Positions 3,322 to 64,000 of a stretch of DNA of 64,000 bases are shown piece after piece. Position numbers and translations under genes: made by a program. Each line of letters starts with the position of its first letter. Within the stretch, counting starts at the first letter, position 1. The notes below the pieces were generated by a model, which saw nothing but the letters and a program-made list of their open reading frames with translations, did no database searches and was not told the DNA's origin. The stretch is from Candidatus Nomurabacteria bacterium (GTDB taxonomy: Bacteria > Patescibacteriota > Minisyncoccia > Phycocordibacterales > UBA5272), in assembly GCA_037130925.1 (NCBI GenBank), contig JBAXSC010000002.1, positions 89,185 through 153,184 on the forward strand. Reading direction: 5' to 3'.

Positions 3322-4638
3322 ATGAAAATAGAAAATACAAATTCTCAGTTTGAGCCAATAACTCCAGAAAGCCTCTCGGAGATATTGGATCTTACTATTA
3401 AAAATGATAATGAAAACAAAATTGTAACATTTTTATGTCAGCTTTCAGCATATACAGAAGATGCTCAATTCAATGTTTCTTTTAATAGCCCATCAAGTAC
3501 AGGAAAATCATATATCGCTTTAGAGGTATCACGACTCTTCCCAAATGAGGATGTTATCAAACTCGGTAATTGTTCAAAAACAGCCTTTTTCCACGAACAA
3601 GGAAGCTATAACAAAGAGACAAATGAAATCACTGTAGACCTATCTAGAAAGATACTAATATTCACAGATAGTCCTCATACAGGATTACTAGAAGGATTAC
3701 GTTCATTTCTTTCTCACGATGAAAAGATAATGTACTCCAAGATTACGGATAAGAATCAGAAAGGAGGAAATCGTACCAAAACAATCGCATTAAAGGGTTA
3801 TCCTTCTGTCATCTTCTGTACAGCAGGATTAAGAATGGATGCTCAAGAACAGACTAGATTCATTTTATTATCTCCTGAAGTAAATCAAGAAAAAATCCAT
3901 GCTGGTATATCAAACACTATTCGTAAAGAATCTGATAATGAAAAGTATAAAGAATGGCTTGATAATGACCAAAAGCGAAAAATGTTAAAGCTTCGTATAC
4001 AAGCAATCAGACAGGAACATATTGACGATATCAAGATATCAAATCAAGATAAAATCTTTAAGCGATTTTTTCAACGAGACAGAAAACTACAACCTCGTCA
4101 TCAACGTGATATTAAGAGATTACTTTCACTTGTAAAATCTTTCGCTTTACTAAATCTTTGGTGGAGAGAAAGAGATGGTTCAACTATAACAGCAAACGAT
4201 GAAGACATAGAACAAGCATTTAAACTTTGGGAGAAAATCTCAATAAGTCAAGAATTAAATTTACCTCCCTTCATTTATGATATCTATACACAGATAATTA
4301 TTCCAGCTTACAATGAGAAAAATGAATTTAAATCTCAAGTATTAAATGAAACACTTAAGAACGGTATTACTCGCCAAGAAATTCTTGATAAACATTTTAA
4401 AATCTTTGGACGTACATTGGATAATCAACAATTAAGACAACAAATTATTCCTGTACTAGAAACATCTGGATTGATTTATCAAGAACAAGACCAAACTGAT
4501 AAACGAAAGATATTAATATTCCCCTCTATGTTTTTTACTACGGAATCAGTGGAAAACAATAGTGATGATGAGTGTGGGGTAAATGAAAATTCTGAAGAAA
4601 ATTATAATGATAATAATTTTCAAAGACAGAACTCCTAA
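3322..4638 (+). CDS. P-loop NTPase, putative replication/helicase-type protein of the element
   Basis: Start moved to the internal ATG (MKIENTNSQ...) because the track ORF start at 3196 overlaps the upstream gene. Walker A-like SPSSTGKSY, Walker B-like ILIFTD, and a C-terminal acidic tail. Confidence 0.55.
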   Translation: MKIENTNSQFEPITPESLSEILDLTIKNDNENKIVTFLCQLSAYTEDAQFNVSFNSPSSTGKSYIALEVSRLFPNEDVIKLGNCSKTAFFHEQGSYNKETNEITVDLSRKILIFTDSPHTGLLEGLRSFLSHDEKIMYSKITDKNQKGGNRTKTIALKGYPSVIFCTAGLRMDAQEQTRFILLSPEVNQEKIHAGISNTIRKESDNEKYKEWLDNDQKRKMLKLRIQAIRQEHIDDIKISNQDKIFKRFFQRDRKLQPRHQRDIKRLLSLVKSFALLNLWWRERDGSTITANDEDIEQAFKLWEKISISQELNLPPFIYDIYTQIIIPAYNEKNEFKSQVLNETLKNGITRQEILDKHFKIFGRTLDNQQLRQQIIPVLETSGLIYQEQDQTDKRKILIFPSMFFTTESVENNSDDECGVNENSEENYNDNNFQRQNS

Positions 4639-5384: not shown

Positions 5385-7004
5385 ATGAATGAAAAAAAAT
5401 TAAAGTATTTTCTCTATGCAAGAAAATCAAGTGAGTCAGAAGATAGGCAAGTACAATCTATTGAAGATCAAATTAAAGAATTAAAAGTAAAAGCATTGAT
5501 GTTAGGAATAACTATAAAAGAAATATTACAAGAAGAAAAATCTGCTAAGAAACCAGATAATCGTCCAATATTTTCGGATATGTTAAAACGAATAAAACAA
5601 GGAGAAGCGGATGGAATATTATGTTGGTCTTTAAATAGACTATCAAGAAATCCTGTAGACAGTGGAGCATTGAGTTGGATGTTGCAACAAAATATTCTTA
5701 AATGTATTCAAACCATGGATAGACCATATCTACCAGATGATAATGTTCTCCTGTTCAATGTAGAAACTGGAATGGCTAATCAATTTATAATTGATTTAAA
5801 AAAAGTTTGTATGCGTGGAATGGAAGGAAAAGCTGATAGAGGTTGGTTACCATCTAGAGCCCCTATTGGATATTTAAACGAGAAAGATAAAATTGAAGGA
5901 ACAAATCTTATAGTGGAAGATCCTGAAAGATTTAATCTTGTAAGAAAAATGTGGGATCTAATGCTCACAGGAAATTATGTAGTTCCTCAAATATATAAGA
6001 TTGTAAATGAAGAATGGGGATTTAGAACTAAAAGAACAAAAAGAGGCGGTGATGTGCCGATTCCCCTTTCTGTACTCTATATAATGTTTACAAATTTATT
6101 CTATGCTGGAAGATTTATGTGGAACGGAAAAGAATATCAGGGAAAACATAAAGCAATGGTAACTTTAGAAGAATTTGATAGAGTGCAAGAAATCTTGGAG
6201 AAGAAAGGAAAACCCAGATCTAAAACTCATGAATTTTCTTATACCTGTTTGATAAGATGTGAAGTTTGTGGATCTTTCTATACTGCTATAGAAAAAACTA
6301 AGTTTGTAAAAAAGGAAGATAAAAATAAAACATACACATATTATGGATGCATAAAAAATAAAGAAATAAAGTGTAATCAAGAAACTTTAAAATTAGAAAA
6401 TTTAGAAGATCAGATTAAATTAGAATTTGAAAAATATACCATACACCCAAAATTTTTAGAATGGGCTAAAGATATTCTAAATAAGAATAACGATAAAGAA
6501 ATAGAAGACAGAACTAAAATCTACGAGACCCAACATAAAGACTTGGTAAAAACCCAAACTGAACTAGATAACTTGGTTAGAATGAGATATAAAGGGCAAG
6601 TAGAAGATGAATTCTACACACAGGAAAGTAACCACTTAAAAGGCAAAATAACCCGCTTACAAGAGAATTTGAGACATACAGAGACACGAGCTGAGCAATG
6701 GATAGAACTGACAGAAAAGACCTTTAAATTCGCACTTTATGCTAGAAAATGGTTTGACGAAGGAGATATACATACTAGAAAAGAGATATTCTCAGCTCTT
6801 GGTCAGAACTTTACTATAAAGGATAAAAAACTCTATATAAATCAAAACGAATGGCTAATTCCAATAGAAAAAGCCTATCCTGAATTAAAAGCAAGATTTG
6901 AGTCGTTAGAACTAAATAAAAGCCAAGATATACAAAGCTATTATGTTGAATTAGACAAGCTAATTCTCGATTGGTGTGCCTATCCGGATTTGAACCGGAA
7001 CTGA
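5385..7004 (+). CDS. large serine recombinase (integrase)
   Basis: N-terminal resolvase domain (YARKSSESEDRQVQSIEDQ, LNRLSRNPVDSG), recombinase domain, Zn-ribbon (CEVCGS...YYGC) and C-terminal coiled-coil. The 3' end overlaps tRNA-His. Confidence 0.9.
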   Translation: MNEKKLKYFLYARKSSESEDRQVQSIEDQIKELKVKALMLGITIKEILQEEKSAKKPDNRPIFSDMLKRIKQGEADGILCWSLNRLSRNPVDSGALSWMLQQNILKCIQTMDRPYLPDDNVLLFNVETGMANQFIIDLKKVCMRGMEGKADRGWLPSRAPIGYLNEKDKIEGTNLIVEDPERFNLVRKMWDLMLTGNYVVPQIYKIVNEEWGFRTKRTKRGGDVPIPLSVLYIMFTNLFYAGRFMWNGKEYQGKHKAMVTLEEFDRVQEILEKKGKPRSKTHEFSYTCLIRCEVCGSFYTAIEKTKFVKKEDKNKTYTYYGCIKNKEIKCNQETLKLENLEDQIKLEFEKYTIHPKFLEWAKDILNKNNDKEIEDRTKIYETQHKDLVKTQTELDNLVRMRYKGQVEDEFYTQESNHLKGKITRLQENLRHTETRAEQWIELTEKTFKFALYARKWFDEGDIHTRKEIFSALGQNFTIKDKKLYINQNEWLIPIEKAYPELKARFESLELNKSQDIQSYYVELDKLILDWCAYPDLNRN

Positions 7005-7047
7005 GGGTTCCACAAACCCTAGTGCTAACCATTACACTATAGGCACC
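6972..7047 (-). tRNA. tRNA-His (anticodon GTG) with encoded G-1, A73 and CCA
   Basis: Reverse complement folds as G-1, GTGCCTA, D arm GTGT/GCAC, anticodon arm AGGGT-TTGTGGA-ACCCT, T arm TCCGG-TTCAAAT-CCGGA, then TAGGCAC-A-CCA. Confidence 0.9.
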
Positions 7048-14027: not shown

Positions 14028-14738
14028 TTAAACTTTTATGACCTTCATTTTATTTGGAGAGCATTTGATCTCTAAAATATCTCCTGTGTTTAGCTCCCAA
14101 TTTTCAATTTGATTATCAGCAAAAATATCAGCGATACCACGAGTGATTTTGATTTTTATAACCCTTTCTTTTTTTAAGACAATATGACTCACTTGCTCTA
14201 TCGCATTATTAAAAGCGAGACCGATCTGATCATCGCTCTCAAAATAGCTTCTTGTGATCGATTTATAGTATCCTGTTGAGCCTATTTGTGTCGATACGAG
14301 TATTCCGTCACCAATAATATCTTGCTCTTGAATTAAAACATCATCTAAGAAAACTTTCATACGAATAGCCATAAATGGATCATGATTATGAATAAGTACA
14401 TCAGCCATAGCCTCCATCTTTTTATCTTTATGAATTATTTCTAATTTTGTCTTTTCTTTAATTGTATATTTACCTTTTACCACAAGATCTAAAATCTTGT
14501 CATTTGGCTCTTTGTGAGCAAGTTTTCCAATATAACTATTTTTTAAATAAAGCTTTGGAATATTTGGATATAAAAATTCTGATTTAAAAAAAGTTCCATC
14601 CCCTCCAAATGAGACGACAATGTCTGGATCTTTTTTAACTATCTCTATATCTTTTTTATGTTTAGAAAATAATAATTTTGCTTTTTCTGCTGAGTCACTG
14701 ACTATCAAAACTTTCAATTTGGGTTTTATTACTTTCAT
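14028..14738 (-). CDS. nadK: NAD kinase
   Basis: GGDGT motif (VVSFGGDGTFF) and STQIGSTGYYKS. Confidence 0.85.
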   Translation of the reverse strand: MKVIKPKLKVLIVSDSAEKAKLLFSKHKKDIEIVKKDPDIVVSFGGDGTFFKSEFLYPNIPKLYLKNSYIGKLAHKEPNDKILDLVVKGKYTIKEKTKLEIIHKDKKMEAMADVLIHNHDPFMAIRMKVFLDDVLIQEQDIIGDGILVSTQIGSTGYYKSITRSYFESDDQIGLAFNNAIEQVSHIVLKKERVIKIKITRGIADIFADNQIENWELNTGDILEIKCSPNKMKVIKV

Positions 14739-37490: not shown

Positions 37491-39176
37491 ATGGCTACAT
37501 ATAATCAAAAAAATTATAAAACTCTAAAATTAACAAACTACTGCAGAAAATCTTCAGAAGGAGAAGATAGGCAGGTATTATCTCTCAATAGTCAAAAAGA
37601 TGAAGGAGAAAATATTAGATCATATTTTGAATTACCAAAATTTATAAGTTCTTATTCAGAAGCAAAATCAGCAAAACTTCCATATAAAAGAAACGAGTTT
37701 TCTCAAATGATAAAAGATATAAAATCTGGGAAAATAGATAGCATTGTTTGCTGGAAATTAGACCGTCTAGCGAGAAATATGGTTGAAGGTGGAGAAATTA
37801 TAGACCTATTAAGTTCAGGTGTCTTAAAAGCTATTTTTACAAAAGATAAGGTATGGCTTCCAACTGATAATGTTATCTTAATGGCAGTAGAATTTAGTCA
37901 AGGAACACAATACAGTATAGACCTATCTGAAAATGTAAAAAGAGGTCAACGAAATAAAGCTAAAGAAGGAACACCTACAGGTCTCGCCTCTCTAGGTTTT
38001 TTAAATAGCAAACAAGGAGACAAAGGTACTCGATGGTGGTATGTAAATGAAGAGAGTTTTAATAAAGTCAAAAAGTTATTTGAAGCATTTTTAGGAGGAA
38101 ACTATTCTGTCCGTAAATTACATAAATATGCAATTGAAGAATTGCATTTAACTACCCCTTTAAGAAAAAAACTTGGAGGTAAATCTATATCTGTTGCAAA
38201 TATTTATCATATACTCAAAAATCCTGTGTATGCTGGATTCTTTTATGTACAAGGTAAAAGATATGAGTTAACTAAAGAACTTCCAAGAATGATCACGGAA
38301 AAAGAATATGAAAAAATACAACAAATGATAAGTAATAATAGAAAACCAAAAAATTCTAAACATAAAGCAGATTATGCAGGATTTCTATTTGATGAAAAAA
38401 ATAAGATTATGTCTCAAGATATAAAATTTCAAATTGTCTGCGATTGTAAATTTAAATATGCTTTTAGAAACAAAAACAATTGTCCTAATTGCGGAAAAAA
38501 TGTAACTGATCTTGATAATCCAAAACATTTTATTCAGTCTTATTATTACAATAATAGAAAAAAGAAAGCCAGATTAAAGTATAAGTCTATTAAACAAGAA
38601 ACAATAGATAATTATCTATTGAATTTTATAAATGATAATTTGGATCTTCCTTTAGAAGTTTTAGAATGGTCTAAAAAATATATAAAAGAACTTAAAGATA
38701 AAGAAGTACAAGAAAACTTAGATAAAGTAAAAGATAAAGAAAAAAGACAAATTGAATATAATAAAAAGAAATTAAGAATAAGAGACATGTATAGAGATCT
38801 TCTTATTAATGAAGATGAATTTAAACAAGACAATGAAAGATTAGATACTGAATATAAAGATCTCTATCAAAACATAAAATCAATTGACTGGATGAAAGAA
38901 TTAAATAGTATCATGGATTTAACTTTTACTATAAAAGATAATATAGAACATGGAGACTACGAGACAAAAAGAATAATGTTAACAAGATTAAGTTCGAACT
39001 TAATTTGGAATGATGAAATACTCAATATTATCAACACTAATGAGATAGAGGAGCTTATAAAAGGATTAAAGATCGCAAAACCTATTATTTCAGGGTTCGG
39101 CAATCAAAAAGCCCTTGTAGAACAAGAGCTTAATGATAGAAACAGTGAATTATGTATTACTTTGCGGAAGTGGTGA
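37491..39176 (+). CDS. large serine recombinase (integrase)
   Basis: Resolvase domain (CRKSSEGEDRQVLSLNSQ, LDRLARNMVEGG), recombinase domain, Zn-ribbon (CDCKF...CPNCG) and coiled-coil. The last 12 nt overlap tRNA-Ser. Confidence 0.9.
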   Translation: MATYNQKNYKTLKLTNYCRKSSEGEDRQVLSLNSQKDEGENIRSYFELPKFISSYSEAKSAKLPYKRNEFSQMIKDIKSGKIDSIVCWKLDRLARNMVEGGEIIDLLSSGVLKAIFTKDKVWLPTDNVILMAVEFSQGTQYSIDLSENVKRGQRNKAKEGTPTGLASLGFLNSKQGDKGTRWWYVNEESFNKVKKLFEAFLGGNYSVRKLHKYAIEELHLTTPLRKKLGGKSISVANIYHILKNPVYAGFFYVQGKRYELTKELPRMITEKEYEKIQQMISNNRKPKNSKHKADYAGFLFDEKNKIMSQDIKFQIVCDCKFKYAFRNKNNCPNCGKNVTDLDNPKHFIQSYYYNNRKKKARLKYKSIKQETIDNYLLNFINDNLDLPLEVLEWSKKYIKELKDKEVQENLDKVKDKEKRQIEYNKKKLRIRDMYRDLLINEDEFKQDNERLDTEYKDLYQNIKSIDWMKELNSIMDLTFTIKDNIEHGDYETKRIMLTRLSSNLIWNDEILNIINTNEIEELIKGLKIAKPIISGFGNQKALVEQELNDRNSELCITLRKW

Positions 39177-39249
39177 GATTCGAACTCACGATGAGTTTCC
39201 CCATGCCGGTTTTCAAGACCGGTGCCTTCAACCACTCGGCCACACTTCC
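39165..39249 (-). tRNA. tRNA-Ser (anticodon TGA)
   Basis: Reverse complement is GGAAGTG-TG-GCC...anticodon arm CCGGT-CTTGAAA-ACCGG, a long variable arm, T arm GTGAG-TTCGAAT-CTCAC, then CACTTCC-G. No CCA. Confidence 0.9.
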
Positions 39250-54007: not shown

Positions 54008-54209
54008 AAGTTATATATAATATAAATATAGCACAAAAAGCAAGTTTATAAACTAATAGTATTTAAAAATTCAATGTCACGACGTGGTGCCCCCATTCGT
54101 GATAGGAAAGTATCGTTTCCTTGTGGGGTAAGGTTTGTTTATATATTTACTATTATAACCTATCAACCCCTCTCGTGATAGTATTATTTGTCTAAAAAGT
54201 GACAAATAT

Positions 54210-54247
54210 TACTTTTTAATTGATAAATAGTTACAGTTAAGTGTAAC
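54210..54247. promoter_or_regulatory. perfect 16-bp inverted repeat (operator or terminator candidate)
   Basis: TTGATAAATAGTTACA-GTTAAG-TGTAACTATTTATCAA, located between the protease stop and the nrtR-like start. Confidence 0.45.
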
Positions 54248-54286
54248 TATTTATCAAGAATACGAAAGAGAAACCTTTTTGTAAGA

Positions 54287-55027
54287 TTAATGACTTTCTT
54301 CATCCACAGCCTCCTTTACTACTTCATTTTGCGCTTTTCTTCTAGCCTCGTCCATTGATTGAAGATTTTCTAATCTTTGTTTATATACTGTGACAGATCT
54401 AATCATAGATAATCCAGGAAGAGAATCACCTGTAGACTTGTTAGGAAAATAATTTGATATAACTCCACATATTTTTAATTCAGAACTATTTTTATCAATG
54501 AAAAAAGCTGGGGCGCCACTCACACCATTTATAGCAACACCATCTACTAAGTAAGAATCCATATTCTGCAAATGACAACTTATATACCCAGCAAAGAAAC
54601 ATAAAGAATTTGCTTCTATTACAGGAAAACCTGTCCATCCTATTTCTGTACCGACATCAATAATTTGGTCTATATCTATTAGTTTTGGTATATCTTTCTC
54701 TTCTATATCGAAGGGATTATTTGTATCGTCTTTGAAAAGTATAAACGCAAGATCTCTTTGTTTATCAACTTCTATAACTCTAATAGTAGGATCGCTAATT
54801 AAAAATCTTTCTTTACTTGAAATATGTTGAGATATTTTTATTGGTTCGTTCCATTCATATGCATGAGCAATTACATGATAAGCAGTAGCGATACCACATA
54901 AATTTTGATCATTTTTAAATATTAAAAAGCCTGTACCGTATCCAGTTGGGGTAGATATTTTAAAAATAGAAGGATTTATACTCAATATTCCAGTTTGCCA
55001 ATTATTTTGATTTTCTTTGTTTTCCAT
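54287..55027 (-). CDS. trypsin-like (S1/Trypsin_2-type) serine protease
   Basis: Candidate triad: His in ATAYHVIAHA, Asp in QRDLAFILF, Ser in NGVSGAPAF. Confidence 0.7.
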   Translation of the reverse strand: MENKENQNNWQTGILSINPSIFKISTPTGYGTGFLIFKNDQNLCGIATAYHVIAHAYEWNEPIKISQHISSKERFLISDPTIRVIEVDKQRDLAFILFKDDTNNPFDIEEKDIPKLIDIDQIIDVGTEIGWTGFPVIEANSLCFFAGYISCHLQNMDSYLVDGVAINGVSGAPAFFIDKNSSELKICGVISNYFPNKSTGDSLPGLSMIRSVTVYKQRLENLQSMDEARRKAQNEVVKEAVDEESH

Positions 55028-55032
55028 ACATT

Positions 55033-55647
55033 TTAATTTAAAATAGGTTTTTTTATAACATCAACCACTGTTCCATTTATACTAAAATCATCATCTTCAT
55101 GTATATAAATAGGATTGAATACTTTTGTAGAATTAGGCATTAAAACAATTCTATGATTAGAGTTTCTTTCATCCACAAATCTTTTAATAGTTGCCTTGTT
55201 TTCGACAATAGCTAAAACAACATTTCCTGTTTTCGGGTCTGTATGAGTATTATCAATTATTACGAAATCTCCATTTTCTATTTTTTTACCAAAGATTTCC
55301 ATATTATTCATAGAATCACCCTCTGCTTTTATTGCAAATAAATTCTTATAATCTTTTTGGTGTAAAAGTTTTTTAGATATAGTAACAAAACCTTGAAAAT
55401 TCTGTTCAGCAAATATAGAAGCATCTCCACAATCAGCAACACCAATAACGGGTAATCTTACAAAATCATCACTCTTCATAGTTTTGTAAATATTAAATCC
55501 CTTTTTTACCAACTGTTCAATATGATGTTTTATTTTTTGAGGAGAACTAATCTTTTCTCCTATCTTATCACCTATCTCCCTCAACGTTAATTTTTCTAAA
55601 TTCTCTTTTTTTGATAATTCTAAAATTTTCTTTTGTATTTCATGCAT
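55033..55647 (-). CDS. LexA-family repressor (wHTH plus S24 peptidase)
   Basis: N-terminal LTLREIGDKIG...IKHHIEQLVKKGF; S24 domain AIKAEGDSMNN...GDFVIIDN...ATIKRF (Ser/Lys dyad); 204 aa. Confidence 0.8.
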   Translation of the reverse strand: MHEIQKKILELSKKENLEKLTLREIGDKIGEKISSPQKIKHHIEQLVKKGFNIYKTMKSDDFVRLPVIGVADCGDASIFAEQNFQGFVTISKKLLHQKDYKNLFAIKAEGDSMNNMEIFGKKIENGDFVIIDNTHTDPKTGNVVLAIVENKATIKRFVDERNSNHRIVLMPNSTKVFNPIYIHEDDDFSINGTVVDVIKKPILN

Positions 55648-55711
55648 ATTTTTATATCTATATTAATTTTATCAATTTTAAGTTTTTAGTCAAGTATTTT
55701 TGTGGATAAGT

Positions 55712-55765
55712 CTTAACAAACTTAACAACTTAATTCTTGACAAGCAAATTTGATTTTGCTAAAAT
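55712..55765 (+). promoter_or_regulatory. putative promoter with tandem operator-like repeats, divergent from the LexA-like gene
   Basis: CTTAACAA at 55712-55719 and 55721-55728, then CTTAATTC at 55729-55736. TTGACA (55737-55742), 17-nt spacer, TAAAAT (55760-55765). Confidence 0.5.
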
Positions 55766-55841
55766 TAATATAATGTTTGGGTGCTCCCTATCAGGAAACA
55801 CGGTCAACAAACAGATTATTAATAAAATTTATTTTAAAACT

Positions 55842-55964
55842 ATGCAAAAGAAGCATGATTGGAATAAAGAACAACCACATAAGGCTAGCGACGGAACAAT
55901 TGCAAGCAGAAAATATGCTGAAAATAATCCTAACAAAGTTGAATGGGTAAAAGTTAAAAAATAA
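55842..55964 (+). CDS. small hypothetical protein
   Basis: 40-aa reading frame from the ATG at 55842 (MQKKHDWNKEQPHKASDG...). The track ORF start at 55737 is the promoter -35 TTG. Confidence 0.3.
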   Translation: MQKKHDWNKEQPHKASDGTIASRKYAENNPNKVEWVKVKK

Positions 55965-55968
55965 ATGT

Positions 55969-56385
55969 ATGGAAACAATTGAAATACCAATGATTCATGA
56001 AGCGATACACACTCCTAAAAAAGGAGATATTATACTTGAATTAACGGATATTCAATATCATACAAATATAACTCCAACTACTAATATAGTTAAAAAAATT
56101 AGGAAAGCAATTTTTAAAAATCAAAAAGACAGAATATATTCGCCTATTGATAAATTGTTTCAACCTATTATAGCTGTAAAAGAAGATGGGGTTATGAAAT
56201 ATTCGGTACCTTTTATTGATCAAGAACAAATATCTATTTTACTTAAAAAATTCCATTCTGAGGGTAAGAGAGTGTTTATTAAAAAGACAAACAATATACA
56301 AGTCTTACCAGGAAAAGATACTATTGAATTTATAAATAGTATTAAAGGAAAAAGAATATTAAGAAAATTTGATAAAGATCAATAA
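55969..56385 (+). CDS. hypothetical protein
   Basis: 138-aa ORF; no motif recognised. Confidence 0.5.
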   Translation: METIEIPMIHEAIHTPKKGDIILELTDIQYHTNITPTTNIVKKIRKAIFKNQKDRIYSPIDKLFQPIIAVKEDGVMKYSVPFIDQEQISILLKKFHSEGKRVFIKKTNNIQVLPGKDTIEFINSIKGKRILRKFDKDQ

Positions 56386-56432
56386 GATCAAAATACGCAG
56401 TAAAAAGTGAGTAGTGTAGGATCGTAAAAGAT

Positions 56433-56504
56433 AATGCCTATTCCACGTAAGAAATAATGGAACATTGGACCTCTGTTATTTCGTGTGTGGAATAGGCATT
56501 TTTC
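56433..56504 (+). terminator. long hairpin / intrinsic terminator
   Basis: AATGCCTATTCCAC (56433-56446) pairs with GTGGAATAGGCATT (56487-56500), with an inner GAAATAA/TTATTTC helix, then TTTT. Confidence 0.6.
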
Positions 56505-56547
56505 TATTTCATACATTTTATTAAAAATAAAATTTATAAAAAAAATT

Positions 56548-57846
56548 ATGAAAAATAAAATTGTTTGGACTACAGTCCAAAGAAAAGTAAAAGACTTAAT
56601 AGCAACGGAAATAAATCCGAGAAAAATTTCAGACAAACAAATGTCTGATCTTAAAAAGAGTTTAAAACGTTTTAATTTAGCAGAAATACCAGCTATCAAT
56701 TTAGACGGAAAAATATTAGCCGGTCATCAAAGAATAAAAGCGTTAATTCTTCTAAAAAGAGAGAATGAAATAATAGATATTCGCGTGCCTAATAGATTAC
56801 TAGACGAAAAAGAAGCAAAACAGTATCTACTCTCCTCTAATTCCATTAGAGGAGATTGGGATTTTGAATTATTATCACAAAATTTCGAAAAAGATTTTCT
56901 TTTAGACATTGGTTTTGATTCTTTAGATCTTGCAAAGATTTTTGAAAATAAAAATAGTCTTAAAAATGAAAGTTTTTCAGTCGAAAAGGAACTGCAGAAT
57001 ATTAAAATTCCTAAAGTTAAGACTGGTGACCATATAATTTTAGGAAGACATCATCTTATTTGTGGAGATTCCACAAATCCATCCATAATAAAAAAGTTAA
57101 TGGGTAAGGAGAAAACTGCTCTAGTAATCCAAGACCCACCTTTTAACATATCCCTTAATTACAACAAAGGAGTTGGAGGGAAAAAATCAAATAAAAATTA
57201 TGGAGGGGAAATAAATGATAGTTTGTCAGATAAAGATTATAAATCATTTATTAAAAGTATGATTAGTAATGCATTATTGGTTTCCAGCAAAGATTGTCAC
57301 TTTGCTTATTATTGTGACGAAAGATATATATGGGTTTTACAGACTATATATAAAGAGCTTGGTATTGAAAATAGAAGAGTGTTGGTGTGGATTAAAAACA
57401 ATTCTTCACCCACACCACAAGTCGCTTTTAACAAATGTATGGAATACATAGTTTACGGAACCAAAGGATCTCCGTTTTTAGCGAATGATTATAAAAATCT
57501 AAATGAAGTTATAAATGAAGACTTAACAAATGGAAATAAATTATTAGATGATATTTCTAATCTGTTATTAATTAAAAGATTGCCAAGCAACAAAATGGAT
57601 CATCCAACAGAGAAATCCCCTCTTCTGCATCACAAAATAATAAAAAGATGCTCAAAGGTAGACGATATTATTATAGATTTAACAGCTGGATCAGGATCAT
57701 TAATGGTAGCTTGTGAACAATTAGGTCGAACTGCTTACATGATTGAAAAAACTCCCATCTTTTGTGATCTAATTATAAAAAGATACGAATCTTTCACAAA
57801 CAAGAAAGCTAAAATAATCTCTAATAAAAATTATGAAAAGAAATAA
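56548..57846 (+). CDS. ParB-like nuclease domain fused to N6/N4 DNA methyltransferase
   Basis: N-terminal ParB-type INPRKISDKQMSDLKKSLKRFNL...LAGHQR. MTase motif IV IQDPPFNI and motif I DLTAGSGS. Start set at MKNKIVW. Confidence 0.8.
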   Translation: MKNKIVWTTVQRKVKDLIATEINPRKISDKQMSDLKKSLKRFNLAEIPAINLDGKILAGHQRIKALILLKRENEIIDIRVPNRLLDEKEAKQYLLSSNSIRGDWDFELLSQNFEKDFLLDIGFDSLDLAKIFENKNSLKNESFSVEKELQNIKIPKVKTGDHIILGRHHLICGDSTNPSIIKKLMGKEKTALVIQDPPFNISLNYNKGVGGKKSNKNYGGEINDSLSDKDYKSFIKSMISNALLVSSKDCHFAYYCDERYIWVLQTIYKELGIENRRVLVWIKNNSSPTPQVAFNKCMEYIVYGTKGSPFLANDYKNLNEVINEDLTNGNKLLDDISNLLLIKRLPSNKMDHPTEKSPLLHHKIIKRCSKVDDIIIDLTAGSGSLMVACEQLGRTAYMIEKTPIFCDLIIKRYESFTNKKAKIISNKNYEKK

Positions 57847-58255
57847 AAGTAAAGATAAGGTTTTAGAAGAGTTAAAAAAAGTCCCTATAATCCAAGTAGC
57901 TTGTGAAAAAACAGGAATCTCTAGAAATACTTTTTATAGATGGAAAAAAGAAATAAAAAGTTTTTCAAAAGAAGTTGATAAGTCTATGGAAGAGGGTGTT
58001 GCATTAATGAATGATATTACCGAATCACAATTACTAAGTATGATTAAAGATAGAGACTTTAGAGCAATATCTTTTTGGCTTAGGCATAGAAATGATAATT
58101 ATAAAAATAAGATTGAAGTTACAACTAAGGAAGACTTTGAAGAACTATCACCTTCTCAGATAAATGTTGTAAAACAAGCACTTAAACTAGCCAAAATGAC
58201 TCAAATTAAAAGCATTAAAAACATAAATAAAAAATATGAATCAAATAATAAATAA
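57833..58255 (+). CDS. HTH protein, probable terminase small subunit
   Basis: N-terminal HTH IIQVACEKTGISRNTFYRWKKE. It lies immediately upstream of, and overlaps, the large terminase gene. Confidence 0.5.
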   Translation: MKRNKSKDKVLEELKKVPIIQVACEKTGISRNTFYRWKKEIKSFSKEVDKSMEEGVALMNDITESQLLSMIKDRDFRAISFWLRHRNDNYKNKIEVTTKEDFEELSPSQINVVKQALKLAKMTQIKSIKNINKKYESNNK

Positions 58256-59735
58256 AAACCTTGAAGACACAATGATTAAAGATCGTATGATTAGAATAAA
58301 TTTAACCAGAGAAAGTTTTCTTTACTTTTTCCACTTCTATTATGCTCATTATGTAAAATATGAGACAGCAGACTTTCAAAAAGAAATTATCTATAATCTT
58401 GAAAAATCAGGAACAGATAATTTATATATAGTTGCTTTTCGTGGATCTGGAAAATCTACCATGGTTACAACTGCATATCCTATTTGGTCAATTCTTGGAA
58501 AACAAGGAAAGAAATTTTGCGTTATATTCTGTCAGACTAAAGCTCAAGCGAAACAACATATGATGAATATTCGTGCAGAACTTGAAAATAACGAGGTCTT
58601 AAAAAGAGATCTTGGACCATTTCGAGAAGAAAGTGACGAGTGGGGTTCTCAGTCGCTAGTATTCAAAAAGCACGGTGCTAGAATAACTATAGCATCAAGT
58701 GATCAAAGTATTCGTGGGCTTCGCCATAATGAACATCGTCCAGATCTAATCATTTGCGATGACGTAGAAGACGTTCAGTCTACTAAAACTCGTGAGGGAC
58801 GAGATAAAACATATAACTGGCTACATGGTGAAGTTATTCCTTCTGGAGATAAAAACACAAGACTAATTATTGTAGGTAATTTATTACATGAGGATTCACT
58901 TCTAATGCGTATCAAAGAAGAAATCTCACAAGGAAGAGCAAAAGGTATTTTTAAAGAATATCCTTTGCTTGATAAAAACGAAGAATGTCTATGGCCAGGA
59001 AAATACAAAGATAAAAAAGATCTTGAAGATGAAAAATTAAAAGTCTCAAGTGAAATCTCTTGGCAACGAGAATATTTACTACGTATTATTCCAAGTGATG
59101 ATCAAGTTATCTATCCAGAGTGGATCCAATTCTACGATGATTTGCCTCATGTAGGACATAAAGCATATAGAGGAACTTATGCAGGTGTTGATCTTGCAAT
59201 ATCTTCTAATGAATGTGCTGACTCTACAGCTGTAGTTATGGCAAATATTTATGGGAGAAGAGATAAGTTGCGTATATACATTCTTCCAAATCCTATTAAT
59301 AAAAAATTAAACTTTCCTGCACAAGTCGATTTGCTGAAAGATATAAAAAATACACAAATGCCAAAATCGACAGATAAAATATTTGTTGAAAGTGTTGCTT
59401 ATCAAGAAGCTTTACCACAGATGTTAGAAATGCAAGGAATTAAAGCGGAAGCTGTTAAACCAAAAGGAGATAAGAGAACTAGACTATCTCTAACTTCTAC
59501 TGCTATAAAATCTGGAATTATTAAATTCCCTAGACATGGATGTGAAGAACTACTTCAACAGATTATAGGATTTGGAGTGGAAAAGCATGATGATCTAGCT
59601 GACGCTTTTTCACTTCTTATTAATTCAACATTAGATAAACATGCAAGAGAGGGTACTATAATCTTCGCCTTTTTAGGTATGAACGGAGAAGACGATAATA
59701 TAATTGGGTATTCAGACTATATAGATGTTGGTTAA
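58236..59735 (+). CDS. terminase large subunit
   Basis: Walker A FRGSGKST, Walker B LIICDDVED, and nuclease-domain acidic residues (AGVDLA..., EKHDDLADAF). Confidence 0.8.
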   Translation: MNQIINKNLEDTMIKDRMIRINLTRESFLYFFHFYYAHYVKYETADFQKEIIYNLEKSGTDNLYIVAFRGSGKSTMVTTAYPIWSILGKQGKKFCVIFCQTKAQAKQHMMNIRAELENNEVLKRDLGPFREESDEWGSQSLVFKKHGARITIASSDQSIRGLRHNEHRPDLIICDDVEDVQSTKTREGRDKTYNWLHGEVIPSGDKNTRLIIVGNLLHEDSLLMRIKEEISQGRAKGIFKEYPLLDKNEECLWPGKYKDKKDLEDEKLKVSSEISWQREYLLRIIPSDDQVIYPEWIQFYDDLPHVGHKAYRGTYAGVDLAISSNECADSTAVVMANIYGRRDKLRIYILPNPINKKLNFPAQVDLLKDIKNTQMPKSTDKIFVESVAYQEALPQMLEMQGIKAEAVKPKGDKRTRLSLTSTAIKSGIIKFPRHGCEELLQQIIGFGVEKHDDLADAFSLLINSTLDKHAREGTIIFAFLGMNGEDDNIIGYSDYIDVG

Positions 59736-60262
59736 TATTTTTTATAATATTCCTTACCGTCTATTTTAAGAGATACAATTTCTCCGCCTTTTCCATTTGT
59801 ATAATCTAATTTTGCATATATGCTTGATCTAAGCATTGCACCAAAACTATTTTGACTATCAACTGTTCCAAAGACAATAATATATGCTGTACCAGTTGCA
59901 CTTTCAACTTCTTCTCTTTCGCTTAAATTAAATTTAGCAGTAGACGGAGCTTTTAAAAGACCTTCGACTTGATTTTGGACAAATACTTCTGCTTCGATTT
60001 CGTGACTTTTTAAATTATTTACAACATCCATTCTTTTTTCTTCGTCAGTTTTTGGTTGAATTGTTGCTGTAGTTTCTTTTGTATTATTTACAGTTTCTGG
60101 CATTAGAGATCCTGATATTGCTAGAAATATAACGGAAAGACAAATAAAAATAACACGAATCTTTTTAAGCTCTTTTTGTTTCTTAAAAAGATTAATAAAT
60201 AGTTTTGGTTTAAAAATACCAATTACAGATATAACAAATAATATTGAAAATAATGTATACAT
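59732..60262 (-). CDS. membrane-anchored hypothetical protein
   Basis: Start set at the ATG (MYTLFSILFVISVIGIF). Two N-terminal hydrophobic segments, then a soluble domain. Confidence 0.5.
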   Translation of the reverse strand: MYTLFSILFVISVIGIFKPKLFINLFKKQKELKKIRVIFICLSVIFLAISGSLMPETVNNTKETTATIQPKTDEEKRMDVVNNLKSHEIEAEVFVQNQVEGLLKAPSTAKFNLSEREEVESATGTAYIIVFGTVDSQNSFGAMLRSSIYAKLDYTNGKGGEIVSLKIDGKEYYKKY

Positions 60263-60296
60263 AATTTGGACGGTTTTATAATTTTGATTAGGTAGC

Positions 60297-60404
60297 AAAA
60301 AACTCCTAGCCAGTTCCGGTATACCCCGTGAGGCATACCCACATCCGTTTCCAGATGTGACCGTCCAAAGTAGACTCTGACTAGGAGATCTTTACTTTGG
60401 ACGG
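60297..60404 (-). ncRNA. candidate structured RNA / leader (GC-rich multi-helix element ending in a U-run)
   Basis: Minus strand: outer helix 60379-60387/60303-60311 (9 bp with one G.U). Hairpins 60340-60345/60354-60359 and 60318-60325/60332-60339 (one G.U). 60393-60404 pairs with 60361-60372. U6 run at 60297-60302. Both mismatches are G.U only on the minus strand. Confidence 0.5.
60361..60380 (+). repeat. 20-nt repeat, copy 1 (CCGTCCAAAGTAGACTCTGA)
   Basis: 19/20 identical to 61315-61334. The core CCGTCCAAA also occurs inverted at 60265-60273 and 60396-60404. Confidence 0.85.
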
Positions 60405-60522
60405 ATATTTGAAACCATGCTTTATTGCTAAAGTTTAGGTTATTTGTAATAAATAATAGCATAATTCAAACTATTATTCTATAATTATTATATCGCAATA
60501 ATTAAAAAAGTCAGATCTATAT

Positions 60523-61251
60523 ATGCCACAAAAGAAAATAGATGAAATAACGTTAACATTTGGAACTTATATGAATCCTGGTATCTTTAATAAAGATTTT
60601 GTTAAAGGATTGAAATATCTTAAAAATTTTGATCAAAAAAGATTTAATAAATATAATAAAATATTATTAGCTATAAGTTGGTTTTCTAAAAAACTTTTAA
60701 GATACGAATTATACTTTTCTAAATTCTATAATGAAAATATATCTGATACGGAAGCATTAGAACATCATGTTAATTCTTATTTACAAGATACTGAAGCTTT
60801 AAAAAATAAATTACTTAATTATCTTGGTTCGTTAAAAAATGATCTTAAAAAGATTTATGTAAATAAAGAAGATATTGAAAAAGTTTATAAACACCTATCT
60901 TCACAAATAGAAAAATCTTTCAAGAAAGTAACACTCCTTAGTACAGAACATAGACATGGAAATTTTAGATTTTTAGATTCAGATTTAATAGAAGCTCAAA
61001 CCATGAGCATGCTTTTAGAACAAAAAAATATTCTTCCACTTTCAGCCCAAGGAATTAATTTGGTTAATGCAAGACTGGAAGAATCTCTTAAGAAATCTAA
61101 AGATAGGTGGATAAAAAATGCAAATAATAATGAATCTCAAATAATTGGAGTTGTTGAAGAAACTCTAGAAAGAACAGAAGACATGTTATACAAAGCTGTT
61201 GGAATAGAAAAAGTAATTTTTAATAACATATCTCAAAATGAAATAAATTAA
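60523..61251 (+). CDS. hypothetical helical protein
   Basis: 242-aa ORF lying between the repeat copies. No confident motif; the EHRHGNF stretch was noted but not assigned. Confidence 0.5.
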   Translation: MPQKKIDEITLTFGTYMNPGIFNKDFVKGLKYLKNFDQKRFNKYNKILLAISWFSKKLLRYELYFSKFYNENISDTEALEHHVNSYLQDTEALKNKLLNYLGSLKNDLKKIYVNKEDIEKVYKHLSSQIEKSFKKVTLLSTEHRHGNFRFLDSDLIEAQTMSMLLEQKNILPLSAQGINLVNARLEESLKKSKDRWIKNANNNESQIIGVVEETLERTEDMLYKAVGIEKVIFNNISQNEIN

Positions 61252-61314
61252 TAGTTCTGCATAGACTTAGCAAACAAATTGTTTTCTGTCATCATTAATA
61301 TATAAGAGTCTAAA

Positions 61315-61334
61315 CCGTCCAAAGTAAACTCTGA
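61315..61334 (+). repeat. 20-nt repeat, copy 2 (CCGTCCAAAGTAAACTCTGA), 11 nt upstream of the LSR3 start
   Basis: Direct repeat of 60361-60380. Its first 14 nt are a perfect inverted repeat of 60391-60404. Confidence 0.85.
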
Positions 61335-61345
61335 TATATAAACAT

Positions 61346-62647
61346 ATGAACAATCAAAGTGTGGGAAAGATAGAGAATAATATTGTATTTACAGAAGAAA
61401 AAGTTAGATATGTTTTATATGCTCGTAAATCAACTGAATCAGACGAGCAACAAGCCTTATCAATAGACTCTCAGATCAAAGAAATGACAGCCATAGCAGA
61501 ACGTCTGAATCTTAATGTTATATCTATTAAAAAAGAATCTCATTCAGCTAAAGCCTCTGGCCAAAGACCTGTATTTAAAGAATTATTAGAAGAAATAAAT
61601 AAAGGTATCTATAATGGAATACTTACTTGGGCACCTGATAGGTTATCTAGAAACGCTGGGGATCTTGGCACTGTTGTAGATCTGATGGATGAAAAGAAAT
61701 TGATTCATATTCAAACTTATGGACAGACCTTTTCTAATTCTCCTAATGAAAAGTTTCTATTAATGATTTTATGTTCTCAAGCTAAGTTAGAGAATGATAA
61801 TAAATCTATAAATGTAAAAAGAGGAATGAGAGCAGTAGTAGAAATGGGATTATTCCCAGGTAGACCCCCTACTGGATATCTACCCTCAAAAAATGTGGAT
61901 GAAAAATGTTTAGCTGTCATAGATGAACCAAGAGCAAATATTGTAAGAGAAGTTTTTGAAAAAATAGCATATCAAAATATATCAGCAAGAAAAGTTTATG
62001 ATTGGTTAATAAAAGAAAAACATTTTAAACCAATCTCTAATAAAACTTTTAGTTTAGGTAACTACTATTTAATGCTCCATAACACTTTCTATTATGGAGT
62101 TTTTGAATATCCAAAAAATGGTGGTCAATGGTATAAAGGAAAACATATACCCATAATCTCAAAAGAGGTTTTTGATTTAGCACAAAAAAATATTAAAAAT
62201 CAAACATTAAGATCTGGAAATTATGAAGATAAAGAATTTGCTTTTACAAAATTATTAACATGTTCTTATTGTGGATCTGGTATTACAGCAGATGAAAAAA
62301 TAAAGAAACAAAAGAACGGAAATATCCATAAATATATTTATTACAGATGCACTAAAGTTAGAAATAGAGATTGCGAATTTAAATCTATAAGAGAAGAAGA
62401 TTTGATTGAACAACTTAAAAATATAGTTGATACGACTGATATAAATAAAATACATATTAAAGAAAAGATATCTAATGACATCAAAAGGTATAAACTTTTT
62501 CAGGCTAAATTTTCAAATCAAAAAATTAATAATTTATTAATCAAAAATATTGATATACAAGAATATATTAAGTTTATTTTAGACAATGGGAAAATGGAAG
62601 AAAAGAGAGAGGTATTGGGATGTTTTAAAGATAAAATTAATATATAG
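61346..62647 (+). CDS. serine recombinase (short large-serine-recombinase type)
   Basis: YARKSTESDEQQALSIDSQ, PDRLSRNAGDLG, a recombinase domain, and a Zn-ribbon CSYCGS...YYRCTK. At 433 aa it lacks the long C-terminal coiled-coil of the other two. Confidence 0.88.
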   Translation: MNNQSVGKIENNIVFTEEKVRYVLYARKSTESDEQQALSIDSQIKEMTAIAERLNLNVISIKKESHSAKASGQRPVFKELLEEINKGIYNGILTWAPDRLSRNAGDLGTVVDLMDEKKLIHIQTYGQTFSNSPNEKFLLMILCSQAKLENDNKSINVKRGMRAVVEMGLFPGRPPTGYLPSKNVDEKCLAVIDEPRANIVREVFEKIAYQNISARKVYDWLIKEKHFKPISNKTFSLGNYYLMLHNTFYYGVFEYPKNGGQWYKGKHIPIISKEVFDLAQKNIKNQTLRSGNYEDKEFAFTKLLTCSYCGSGITADEKIKKQKNGNIHKYIYYRCTKVRNRDCEFKSIREEDLIEQLKNIVDTTDINKIHIKEKISNDIKRYKLFQAKFSNQKINNLLIKNIDIQEYIKFILDNGKMEEKREVLGCFKDKINI

Positions 62648-62713
62648 ATTCCACAATAAATAAACAATTTTGTACATATTAATAATATCTAATTAAAATG
62701 ATAAAATAAAAAT

Positions 62714-63364
62714 ATGAATAAGCATAATAAAAAATCAATAATAAACACAATACAAAATATTGATTGTTTAGAGGGAATAAAAAAAATTCCTGATGGAAAA
62801 GTTGATCTTATTTTTACAGACCCTCCTTATGGATTAAATAAAGCAGGTATTAAAAATGATGAAAATTTAGAAGTTTTTTATAAGATTCTGCCAGAATGTT
62901 ACCGAGTTTTAAAAGACGATGCTTTTTTTATAACTTTTTTCAGTACTAAATTTTTACCAGATGTTTTTAAAAATAACCCTTTTACATATTATTGGAATTT
63001 TGTATTGTATTGTCCAAACGGAAGAGTTTCTTCAAGTATTGGTTTTACTAAATATATGAGTTGTATTGTTTTTAAAAAAGGAAATGCAAAAATAGTTAAA
63101 AAAGGAAAAGATATTTTTGTAGACACTCCAGGTAGAATGATTGAACCTGATGAAGGTTTTATTGATCATCCAACACCAAAACCAAAAACTTTTATAAAAG
63201 ATATATTGCAAATGTTTTCAAAAGAAAATGATATTGTTTTAGATCCTTTTATTGGAAGTGGTAGTTTGGCTGTTGCTTGTAAACAAACAAAGAGAAGATA
63301 TGTAGGATTCGAAATAGATAAAAATTATTATAAATTAGCAAATACTAGATTAAAAAAATTTTAA
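62714..63364 (+). CDS. DNA methyltransferase (N6-adenine/N4-cytosine, beta-class order)
   Basis: Motif IV FTDPPYGL lies N-terminal and motif I DPFIGSGS lies C-terminal. Confidence 0.85.
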   Translation: MNKHNKKSIINTIQNIDCLEGIKKIPDGKVDLIFTDPPYGLNKAGIKNDENLEVFYKILPECYRVLKDDAFFITFFSTKFLPDVFKNNPFTYYWNFVLYCPNGRVSSSIGFTKYMSCIVFKKGNAKIVKKGKDIFVDTPGRMIEPDEGFIDHPTPKPKTFIKDILQMFSKENDIVLDPFIGSGSLAVACKQTKRRYVGFEIDKNYYKLANTRLKKF

Positions 63365-63367
63365 AGT

Positions 63368-64000
63368 ATGAAAAATAAAAAAGAAATTTTAGGTCAATTT
63401 TTTACCAAACAAGAAACTGTTAAAAAAGTTTTAGGCATACTTTTTGAATATGTTGATAATAGTAAAAAACTCTCAATCTTAGAACCGTCTTCTGGAACAG
63501 GAAATTTTATAAAAATCTTAAACGAATTAGGGTATAAAAATATAACTGGCTGTGAGATAGATCCTGAGTTAACAGATAAACCTGAAGATTTTTTTGATAT
63601 GGATTTAAATAAGAAATTCGATTTAATAGTTGGGAATCCTCCATTTACTAAATATAATCTAAAAGATAGTTATTATTATGCTTCTAAATATAAAAAATCA
63701 GAAATTTCACCAAATGAATATCTTAGTAAACAAGATATAAAAATAGATAAACATAAGATAGAAAATGTATTTATAAATAAATCTATAAAACACTTAAAAA
63801 GTGATAAGTCTTCAATAGGTTTTGTTTTACCTATATCTTTTTTTATTAAGAAGAAAAACCTAGAAACAAAAAAGAATATAGTAGAAAATTTTTCTTCTGT
63901 AATTATATATCAAGATGATAGTGTCTGGTTTGATAGAAATATACCTTGTTGTTTTGCTATTTTTACAAACAATAAAGATTTTGAAGGAAGAGTTGTTGTT
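63368..64000 (+). CDS. N6-adenine DNA methyltransferase, gamma-class (Eco57I/TaqI-like), truncated by window end
   Basis: Hand translation gives MKNKKEILGQFFTKQETVKK...ILEPSSGTGNF...LIVGNPPFTKY. Absent from the ORF track because it is open-ended. Confidence 0.8.
   Translation, partial: MKNKKEILGQFFTKQETVKKVLGILFEYVDNSKKLSILEPSSGTGNFIKILNELGYKNITGCEIDPELTDKPEDFFDMDLNKKFDLIVGNPPFTKYNLKDSYYYASKYKKSEISPNEYLSKQDIKIDKHKIENVFINKSIKHLKSDKSSIGFVLPISFFIKKKNLETKKNIVENFSSVIIYQDDSVWFDRNIPCCFAIFTNNKDFEGRVVV

Follow-up and report, generated by a model that had tools for sequence, protein, structure and literature searches.

The immunity RNAs C4 and CI are structured RNAs encoded by mobile elements, and each carries a short sequence that is complementary to several sites on the element's own transcripts, one of these sites being at a ribosome-binding region. 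They are named as the immunity RNAs of phages P1 and P7 (C4) and of satellite phage P4 (CI) in PMC5499578. Here we describe a locus of comparable layout in a 64,000-nucleotide window (the whole stretch of DNA that was analysed) from a Candidatus Nomurabacteria bacterium, in which the gene of the structured RNA LOOT lies beside that of LSR3, a large serine recombinase (LSR), inside a mobile element. The LOOT motif was discovered by Weinberg et al. 2017 (PMC5737381) and is shown in PMC7779021 as a "metagenomic-based RNA"; the literature that we searched, the supplement of the discovery paper excluded, gives no function, genomic setting or targets for it. A 9-mer, CCGTCCAAA, occurs four times around these two genes. 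On balance, though by no great measure, we favour the view that the four copies form one regulatory module acting at the RNA level within this element of Nomurabacteria, which belong to the candidate phyla radiation (CPR).

All four copies of CCGTCCAAA in the 64-kb window fall within 1.07 kb (60265-61323). Dinucleotide shuffles of the sequence contained a mean of 0.19 copies and none of 100 shuffles contained four. The original prediction had drawn attention to these copies, and direct reading of the sequence confirmed every one of them at its position. CCGTCCAAAGTAGACTCTGA (60361-60380) returns as CCGTCCAAAGTAAACTCTGA (61315-61334) with 19 of 20 positions identical, and the second copy ends 11 nt before the LSR3 start codon at 61346, as predicted; a repeat search extended the direct repeat to 21 nt (60360-60380 and 61314-61334; 95% identity). 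TTTACTTTGGACGG (60391-60404) is the exact reverse complement of 61315-61328, and a short fourth copy, TTTGGACGG, lies at 60265-60273. The predicted geometry was also right, in that a 14-bp perfect inverted repeat bounds a 910-bp segment with an open reading frame (ORF; 60523-61251) inside and the recombinase gene outside. Two of the copies (60361-60372 and 60393-60404) pair with each other and form the basal helix of LOOT. As these two are the strands of one helix, the locus holds one hairpin and two extra copies and not four independent sites, and the perfect inverted repeat is an automatic by-product of a hairpin accompanied by one direct repeat of its other strand.

The LOOT gene (Rfam RF03000) occupies 60318-60441 on the minus strand and matches the full model (positions 1-121) with 76.2 bits (E 1.5e-12), the gathering score being 46.4; a local covariance-model search gave 71.9 bits. 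When 60150-61450 was searched against Rfam at E values up to 1, LOOT alone was reported and no homology to C4 or CI RNAs was found. Folding of the region, compared with shuffles, gave z = -5.0. The family helices and the conserved CCUAAAC, GCAUGG and GAAA features are all present, and compensatory changes in P3 and P4 are seen among the window and the related loci L243 and L246. According to the Rfam structure, the basal strands of P2 are CCGUCCAAAGUA (60393-60404) and UACUUUGGACGG (60361-60372). The former is the 5' arm, also found by RNAfold, and corresponds to the left arm (60391-60404) of the inverted repeat. The 3' strand with the end of the loop reads UCAGAGUCUACUUUGGACGG in the RNA (60361-60380, minus strand), which is the first copy of the direct repeat and the part that we propose as an antisense seed.

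Relatives of LOOT were collected with a strict pattern, which was found on 4 viral contigs and at least 119 genome contigs, and at most 8 kb was examined per locus. A looser pattern produced about 120 matches on viral contigs, of which 1 was a real LOOT, and the stricter pattern was used in its place; 18 of 18 pattern-found relatives that were re-tested passed the Rfam threshold. Across this collection the P2 arms vary in sequence yet remain complementary, with 9-14 contiguous pairs in 117 of 124 loci. The P2 loop (CUCCUAGUCAG, 60377-60387, minus strand) pairs with a 3' tail outside the Rfam model (CUGGCUAGGAG followed by six U residues, 60297-60313, minus strand), and the tail is a partner of the distal 5' strand as well, so that a pseudoknot or an alternative helix is predicted. 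In a family-wide test, the loci's own tails had a median pairing score of 31 versus 17 for permuted tails, and 58% of the loci exceeded the 95th control percentile. Across the family (L002, L126, L129, L130 and others) there is a conserved 3' extension with a consensus close to CUGGCGGGGAGCUUUUUG, and its pairing with the loop of P2 and the distal 5' strand involves as many as about 19 nt. Many "cross-covariations" have been reported for LOOT (PMC7657543), and the pairing of tail and P2 loop may account for them.

The short copy at 60265-60273 lies at the start of the gene downstream of LOOT (59732-60262, minus strand), which encodes a protein of 176 aa with an N-terminal membrane segment and with PHROG matches of unknown function. 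The ORF was listed with an upstream TTG as its start, which would overlap the LOOT tail, and the ATG at 60262 was chosen instead. Read on the minus strand, AAAACCGUCCAAAUUAUG consists of an A-rich linker and the first nine bases of the P2 5' arm, with the ATG (60262-60260) following after 2 nt. This linker and arm copy (AAAACCGUCCAAA, 60265-60277, minus strand) is the proposed target in cis of the P2 3' strand, and a copy at the downstream gene is also present in L243, L246 and L327. Downstream genes are heterogeneous across the family; in 73 of 108 loci one or more membrane segments are predicted for the first downstream ORF.

Copies of this kind follow the sequence of the P2 arm from locus to locus. 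At least 9 nt of the locus's own P2 5' arm are repeated within 250 nt downstream in 23% of 111 loci versus 1.2% when arms were permuted among loci, and the same test showed no excess of P2 3' arm repeats over permuted arms. With an 8-nt arm prefix, a copy was found in 25 of 110 loci, 22 of them with an ATG no more than 14 nt away, and 13 distinct arm sequences were represented; the control rate was 30 in 21,680 permuted pairs (0.14%). Scored as complementarity between the 3' arm and the start region, 19-23% of the loci lie above the 99th or 95th control percentile. The layout is AAAACC, the arm, a few nucleotides and the ATG, about 50-75 nt beyond LOOT, and the site spans roughly -15 to -3, with the ATG included in some loci. 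Locus-specific versions are AAAAACCCACGCAAGTAATATG in L123, TAAATCCTACCAGGGTATG in L132, TAAAACCGCTACAGTGCTTATG in L176 and, containing the ATG, AAAACCCGATGAAAGA in L224. Nothing but the P2 3' strand of the locus concerned changes in concert with its copy, and base pairing explains this most economically, while a DNA-binding protein would have to change its specificity from lineage to lineage. With only about 50-75 nt of spacing there is scant room for a promoter, and the downstream gene is thus probably co-transcribed with LOOT.

One locus has a longer copy at the start region. About 138 nt past the intact LOOT of L209 (about 3447-3700, LOOT-oriented) comes a partial second one, in which P1, the linker and 8 nt from the start of the P2 5' arm run directly into an ATG, and this may show how such copies originate. 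As a general account, a remnant of tandem LOOT duplication was considered and set aside; L209 apart, it is unlikely given the sharp boundaries of the copies, their fixed position before the ATG and the 13 covarying versions.

The remaining copy lies in the leader of the recombinase gene. LSR3 (61346-62647, plus strand) has 433 aa with Resolvase, Recombinase and Zn_ribbon_recom domains and is 100% identical to an NCBI protein of a Candidatus Nomurabacteria metagenome-assembled genome (MAG). Of the 21 positions of the leader copy (ACCGTCCAAAGTAAACTCTGA, 61314-61334, plus strand), 20 are complementary to the P2 3' strand of LOOT, and the copy is the proposed target in trans. In an alignment with copy-less relatives, it sits in an insertion (61307-61342, plus strand) flanked by repeated ATATATAA, directly after a conserved promoter and leader block (TTCTGCATAGACTTAGCAAA ... 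TTTTCTGTCATCATTAATATATAAG, 61255-61306, plus strand) that is present with or without LOOT. The leaders of L218, L247, L248, L250, L371 and L372 have the conserved block (TTCTGCATAGACTTAGCAAA ... TTTTCTGTCATTAATATATA) running directly into the ATG. The window, L246, L243, L249 and L327/L356 have 34-60 nt inserted between block and ATG, and each insertion carries the complement of the P2 3' strand. These are five diverged elements with either the same P2 sequence or a LOOT that falls off the contig, and we grouped them as the CCGTCCAAAG subclade. A metagenome scan with GTCCAAAGTNNNYTCTGA was too unspecific to add more than L327 and L356 to this set.

The leader copies read CCGTCCAAAGTGAACTCTGA in L246, CCGTCCAAAGTAGATTCTGA in L249 and CCGTCCAAAGTAACTCTGA in L327/L356. 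That of L243, GTCCAAAGTGGACTCTGATTAGGAG, reaches into the loop and matches the complement of loop and 3' strand at 23 of 25 positions, which indicates that the 3' half of P2, rather than the 5' arm, is what the copy derives from or was selected against. The window copy likewise matches the complement of 3' strand and loop at 19 of 20 positions versus 14 of 20 for the 5' arm. Where LOOT is on the same contig (the window, L243, L246 and L327/L356), P2 is identical despite the divergence of P1, P3 and P4. Identity to LSR3 is only 64-74% for the recombinases compared, which are those of L243 (74%), L246 and L249. Over this distance the leader copy keeps 18-20 of 20 positions while flanking bases and the intervening cargo differ. 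The substitutions A12G, C15T and C21T retain pairing as G-U on the mRNA strand and G13A produces an A-C mismatch, so that pairing survives three of the four types of substitution; in L327 one nucleotide is deleted at the position of the mismatch. The boundaries of the copy differ between lineages and the same seed is always covered. The cargo between LOOT and recombinase is itself variable, with ORF242 in the window (60523-61251, plus strand, no family match), an unrelated 190-aa ORF in L246, only an ORF remnant in L243 and no ORF in L327.

The insertion is absent from the recombinase leaders of the LOOT-less relatives L248, L250, L371 and L372. In eight orthologous loci where the P2 of LOOT differs (L218, L176, L235, L152, L210, L196, L143 and L211), neither an insertion nor excess complementarity is seen, and the leader site is therefore specific to one lineage. 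These comparisons strengthen one of the three readings in the original prediction, namely antisense action on the recombinase leader: the RNA now has an identity, the complementarity to the leader is confirmed, the copy is conserved in the relatives L246, L243, L249 and L327/L356, and it is missing where LOOT is missing or has another P2. The pairing as such is what these sequences predict. In the copy-less leaders (L218, L247, L248, L250, L371 and L372; compare 61282-61348 of the window) the recombinase ATG stands 0-5 nt past a conserved TCATTAATATATA block, which suggests leaderless recombinase mRNAs in those relatives.

The locus thus holds a structured RNA gene and two complementary sites, both near start codons (60265-60277 and 61314-61334), as would be expected of an antisense RNA encoded by an element. 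We consider it fairly probable, with considerable reservation, that both translation-start regions are targeted by the P2 3' strand as an antisense seed, which the 5' arm masks. The strand (UCAGAGUCUACUUUGGACGG) would alternate between its own 5' arm, the downstream start region and the recombinase leader, which would itself be transcribed from the conserved upstream promoter. Pairing of the seed with either mRNA would block ribosome access, and the 20-25-bp duplex with the recombinase leader could also trigger cleavage of double-stranded RNA. Masking by the 5' arm would keep the seed inactive, and the pseudoknot between P2 loop and 3' tail may set when it is exposed. If the tail helix forms, it would free the distal 3' strand (AGUCUAC), from which pairing with a target could start. 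The identity of the RNA, the complementarities, their conservation and covariation and the position of the attachment site are established, whereas pairing in the cell and repression are inferred, as are transcription of the recombinase leader from the upstream promoter and whatever opens P2.

Energy predictions are partly consistent with such pairing. RNAduplex with the whole LOOT RNA returned meaningless long-range structures, and the calculations were redone with the seed alone and as a cofold. The predicted duplex of seed and recombinase leader has -34.7 kcal/mol and that of seed and downstream start region -17.0 kcal/mol, and the predicted bimolecular minimum-energy fold contains the seed-leader duplex.

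Several observations weigh against antisense control by the P2 strand. The net predicted gain on leader binding is -5.5 kcal/mol versus -5.2 +/- 2.1 for shuffled leaders; the gain is small because the seed sits in a stable helix and P2 must open, and a mechanism that opens P2 has to be assumed in the model. Across the family, recombinase leaders show no excess complementarity to their own LOOT (median 21 versus 20 in controls), and every leader copy accompanies one and the same P2, which amounts to conservation and not to true covariation. Among LOOT loci, only about one in four has the downstream site. The ATG of copy-less relatives comes right after a -10-like TATATA, again suggesting leaderless mRNA, and the window copy is closely followed by a second TGATATATA; were transcription to start at the latter, the copy would be promoter DNA and not RNA. 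The L243 site ends 20 nt before the ATG, beyond the typical ribosome footprint. As downstream sites are found in about a quarter of loci and leaders elsewhere show no excess, target pairing cannot be the universal function of LOOT.

A further step, which we offer only tentatively and think rather doubtful, is that LOOT is a conditional riboregulator in which the core and pseudoknot sense a signal and unmask the P2 3' strand, silencing the cargo gene in cis and, in the Nomurabacteria subclade, the integrase in trans. If so, integration, excision or cargo expression would be coupled to a signal, and a riboswitch-like small RNA (sRNA) would take the role played in classical phages by protein repressors or by RNAs of the C4/CI type.

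Whether the copies could serve recombination depends on where the element ends. Ordinary chromosomal genes (IMPDH, guanylate kinase, RuvA, Fpg, PurA and NrtR) extend up to about 54.0 kb. A tRNA 3'-end fragment, CACGACGTGGTGCCCCC (54078-54094, plus strand), then forms the left attachment site (attL) and is homologous to the left end of the L243 element. The two are 87.5% identical over 80 nt (window 54078-54157), and the alignment breaks exactly after ...TGGTGCCCCC. A perfect direct repeat of 29 bp, the 3' end of tRNA-Lys(UUU) included, marks the two ends of the L243 element itself (1452-1586 and 14561-14655), which is 13.1 kb long. Judged by this homology, the window element starts at 54078-54094, is integrated at the 3' end of a tRNA-Lys gene and extends past 64000, and LSR3 is likely its integrase. 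The CCGTCCAAA copies are all internal and not at the ends of the element, and orthologous recombinases (E 1e-138 to 1e-184) adjoin LOOTs with unrelated P2 arms, so the core is not kept among them. With ends derived from tRNA-Lys and the copies internal, the main support for the copies as recombination sites is lost, and an element that has its own attachment sites makes a second role of LSR3 as an invertase unnecessary. Two related ideas were discarded. LOOT as an integration target in the manner of a tRNA gene was suggested by the many recombinases that abut it, but here it lies inside the element between terL and the recombinase gene, and the ends are derived from tRNA-Lys. The P2 hairpin DNA as a dyad site for the recombinase was rejected because its arms vary among orthologous recombinases.

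These results bear on the two other readings of the original prediction. One was a DNA inversion switch of the Gin/Cin type, in which the recombinase would flip the 910-bp segment between the 14-bp arms (60391-60404 and 61315-61328) and thereby redirect transcription. Its starting point is real, a perfect inverted repeat with a serine recombinase gene just outside, and the two arrangements of recombinase and LOOT seen in the family (divergent, or upstream and co-directional) could hint at rearrangement. However, the left arm is the 5' strand of a conserved helix, and flipping would split LOOT between the P2 strands. LSR3 is no small invertase of about 190 aa but belongs to the large class, with Recombinase and zinc-ribbon domains in 433 aa, and its element has tRNA-Lys-derived attachment sites. 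The leader copy is without a second half-site of comparable quality, the content between the arms varies (ORF242, another ORF or none), and all relatives with LOOT and leader copy on the contig (the window, L243/L244, L246 and L327/L356) have the same orientation; we regard inversion as extremely improbable. The other reading took the copies as binding sites for the recombinase or a repressor, that is, as operators or accessory sites at the flanking promoters and starts. Several 9-12-bp core copies do surround a divergent promoter region, the leader copy lies inside an imperfect palindrome (AGAGTCTAAACCGTCCAAAGTAAACTCT), and if the LSR3 mRNA were leaderless from the proximal TGATATATA, this palindrome would fall in the promoter spacer or -35 region. 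Such sites are nevertheless hard to reconcile with P2 arms that change wholly between loci while staying complementary and that are tracked by the downstream copy in 13 versions, or with orthologous recombinases beside LOOTs with unrelated arms. The core is also missing from the attachment site and from the region of the LexA-like repressor gene, there being just the four copies in the window, and the L243 copy extends into the loop as an RNA complement would. Together with the tRNA-Lys attachment site, this leaves protein-binding sites improbable, yet conceivable for the leader copy, since copy-less relatives look leaderless and a TGATATATA follows the copy in the window.

Two further explanations concern the leader copy more narrowly. 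It could be a non-functional footprint, an inverted templated duplication of the nearby hairpin (for example by template switching) that the subclade inherited. The repeated ATATATAA around the insertion is what a duplication or insertion would leave, the single P2 shared by all carriers fits one ancestral event, and the predicted net binding energy is no better than that of shuffled leaders. A neutral footprint is nonetheless unlikely, since 18-20 of 20 positions are kept at 64-74% recombinase identity while adjacent leader bases, cargo and the other LOOT helices have changed, the boundaries vary by lineage with the seed always covered, and the family-wide downstream copies show that such sites are selected. 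Alternatively, LOOT might be a riboswitch-like leader that acts in cis only, with the 3' arm as anti-start and the 5' arm as anti-anti-start sequence, and the recombinase leader copy would then mimic the 5' arm for some other shared factor. Co-transcription is likely with so little room for a promoter in the 45-70 nt or so between LOOT and the downstream ATG, the arrangement resembles a classical expression platform, and the conserved multi-helix core with its pseudoknot is what a sensor might have. The leader copy, however, fits the complement of 3' strand and loop (19/20 in the window, 23/25 in L243) better than the 5' arm (14/20), and no candidate for a shared factor is known, which makes this account about as improbable as protein-binding sites. 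We therefore retain antisense pairing by the P2 3' strand as the preferred explanation.

Nearly all LOOT contigs are MAGs of Patescibacteria/CPR. Clustering of the ORFs over the LOOT loci gave only four recurrent families, namely serine recombinase, DNA methylase, terS and terL, and this gene content places LOOT in serine-recombinase mobile elements of these bacteria. The recombinase family comprises 61 genes in 55 of the 124 loci, and in 56 of the 61 the 5' end faces LOOT; orthologues of LSR3 (in the E range given above) directly adjoin LOOT in at least 10 loci. The order seen in the window, terL, a small gene, LOOT and an LSR gene, recurs in L235, L152 and L210, and L237 has the side with terL, small gene and LOOT with no LSR detected. 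The close relatives L248 and L250 have terL followed directly by the recombinase, and L371 and L372 are likewise without LOOT upstream of the recombinase. Because some close relatives are without LOOT, we consider LOOT and its downstream gene an optional cassette. In L164, L233, L123 and L193 the LSR3 orthologue and LOOT point the same way, with the stop codon of the recombinase gene just 23-57 nt upstream of LOOT, while most other loci are divergent; the cassette can thus occupy either side of the recombinase gene.

The rest of the element contains genes for a LexA-like repressor, a ParB-methylase, terS and terL (window 54095-64000; L243 1481-14560). No portal, capsid or tail genes were recognisable in the parts seen, and the L243 element measures only 13.1 kb in total. 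It would seem closer to a satellite or a defective element than to a complete prophage. Directly after the recombinase lie variable genes of defence type (window 62714-64000, with five relatives compared): a type II methylase and an Eco57I-like enzyme in the window and L243 (11378-13166), type I restriction-modification and AbiTii in L246 (11360-19418) and L247 (2091-5052), a helicase and an MmeI-like enzyme in L249 (1407-4369), and a UvrD-like helicase with an OLD-type ATPase in L371 (3837-6326). At the left end (54078-54200), a stretch richer in GC and shared with L243 comes after the tRNA fragment and contains the inverted repeats CACGA..TCGTG, CCCCA..TGGGG and GGAAA..TTTCC. Just past the gene of a trypsin-like peptidase there is an AT-rich palindrome with perfect 16-bp arms (TTGATAAATAGTTACA gttaag TGTAACTATTTATCAA, 54213-54263), which may be a terminator or an operator. 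Elsewhere in the window, two other large serine recombinase genes end in or against the 3' ends of tRNA genes on the opposite strand (5385-7004 with tRNA-His at 6972-7046, and 37491-39176 with tRNA-Ser at 39164-39249). Given this abutment, all three recombinases of the window appear to belong to elements that target tRNA genes.

LOOT is one of the larger orphan structured RNAs from comparative genomics, and there is now a first testable hypothesis of its function. The 3' tail pseudoknot, the CPR serine-recombinase setting and the matching sites at neighbouring start codons are absent from the Rfam model and the literature searched. What is added here is that a strand of the longest LOOT helix has matching sites at start codons which covary with the helix, and that one lineage has gained such a site at the integrase gene itself. 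The suggestion is that integrase and cargo expression are controlled at the RNA level, in bacteria whose gene regulation has hardly been studied, and the eye-catching inverted repeat of this locus is disfavoured as a recombination switch.

Compared with the Gin/Hin/Cin/Pin switches, the locus shares a recombinase gene that adjoins a segment bounded by inverted repeats. It differs in that LSR3 is of the large, integrase class, whereas the Gin, Hin and Cin invertases have about 190 aa with a catalytic domain and a C-terminal helix-turn-helix; in that one arm is inside an RNA gene, the cargo is variable and the tRNA sites are separate; and in that no pair of dyad-symmetric crossover sites is apparent. 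An inverted 14-mer is present, one arm of which is a strand of an RNA helix, and the second half of the leader site is weak. The closer match among DNA elements is with elements and prophages that insert into tRNA genes by large serine recombinases, as seen in the three-domain architecture of LSR3, the 29-bp tRNA-Lys repeat of L243 and the homologous left end in the window. Unlike typical members, these elements are small (13.1 kb in L243), have terS and terL without a recognisable capsid or portal gene in the parts seen, carry defence genes directly after the recombinase and in many cases have a LOOT cassette beside it.

At the RNA level, the locus resembles the expression platforms of riboswitches and leaders, and sRNAs that act on start regions, in that three sequences compete for one strand. 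Unlike riboswitch platforms, the competing strands are found in about 23% of LOOT loci, the downstream site thus being present in about a quarter of members, one target lies on a separate, divergent transcript, and no ligand or sensor is known. The C4 RNA of P1/P7 and the CI RNA of P4 differ from LOOT, which has no sequence or structure similarity to them (Rfam reports LOOT alone), whose seed is mostly paired in a long helix and not displayed in loops, and whose proposed targets are a cargo membrane protein and the integrase and not an antirepressor or a replication operon. LOOT is like them as a structured RNA that is encoded by an element, has complementary sites on that element's own transcripts and would control genes that decide the element's lifestyle.

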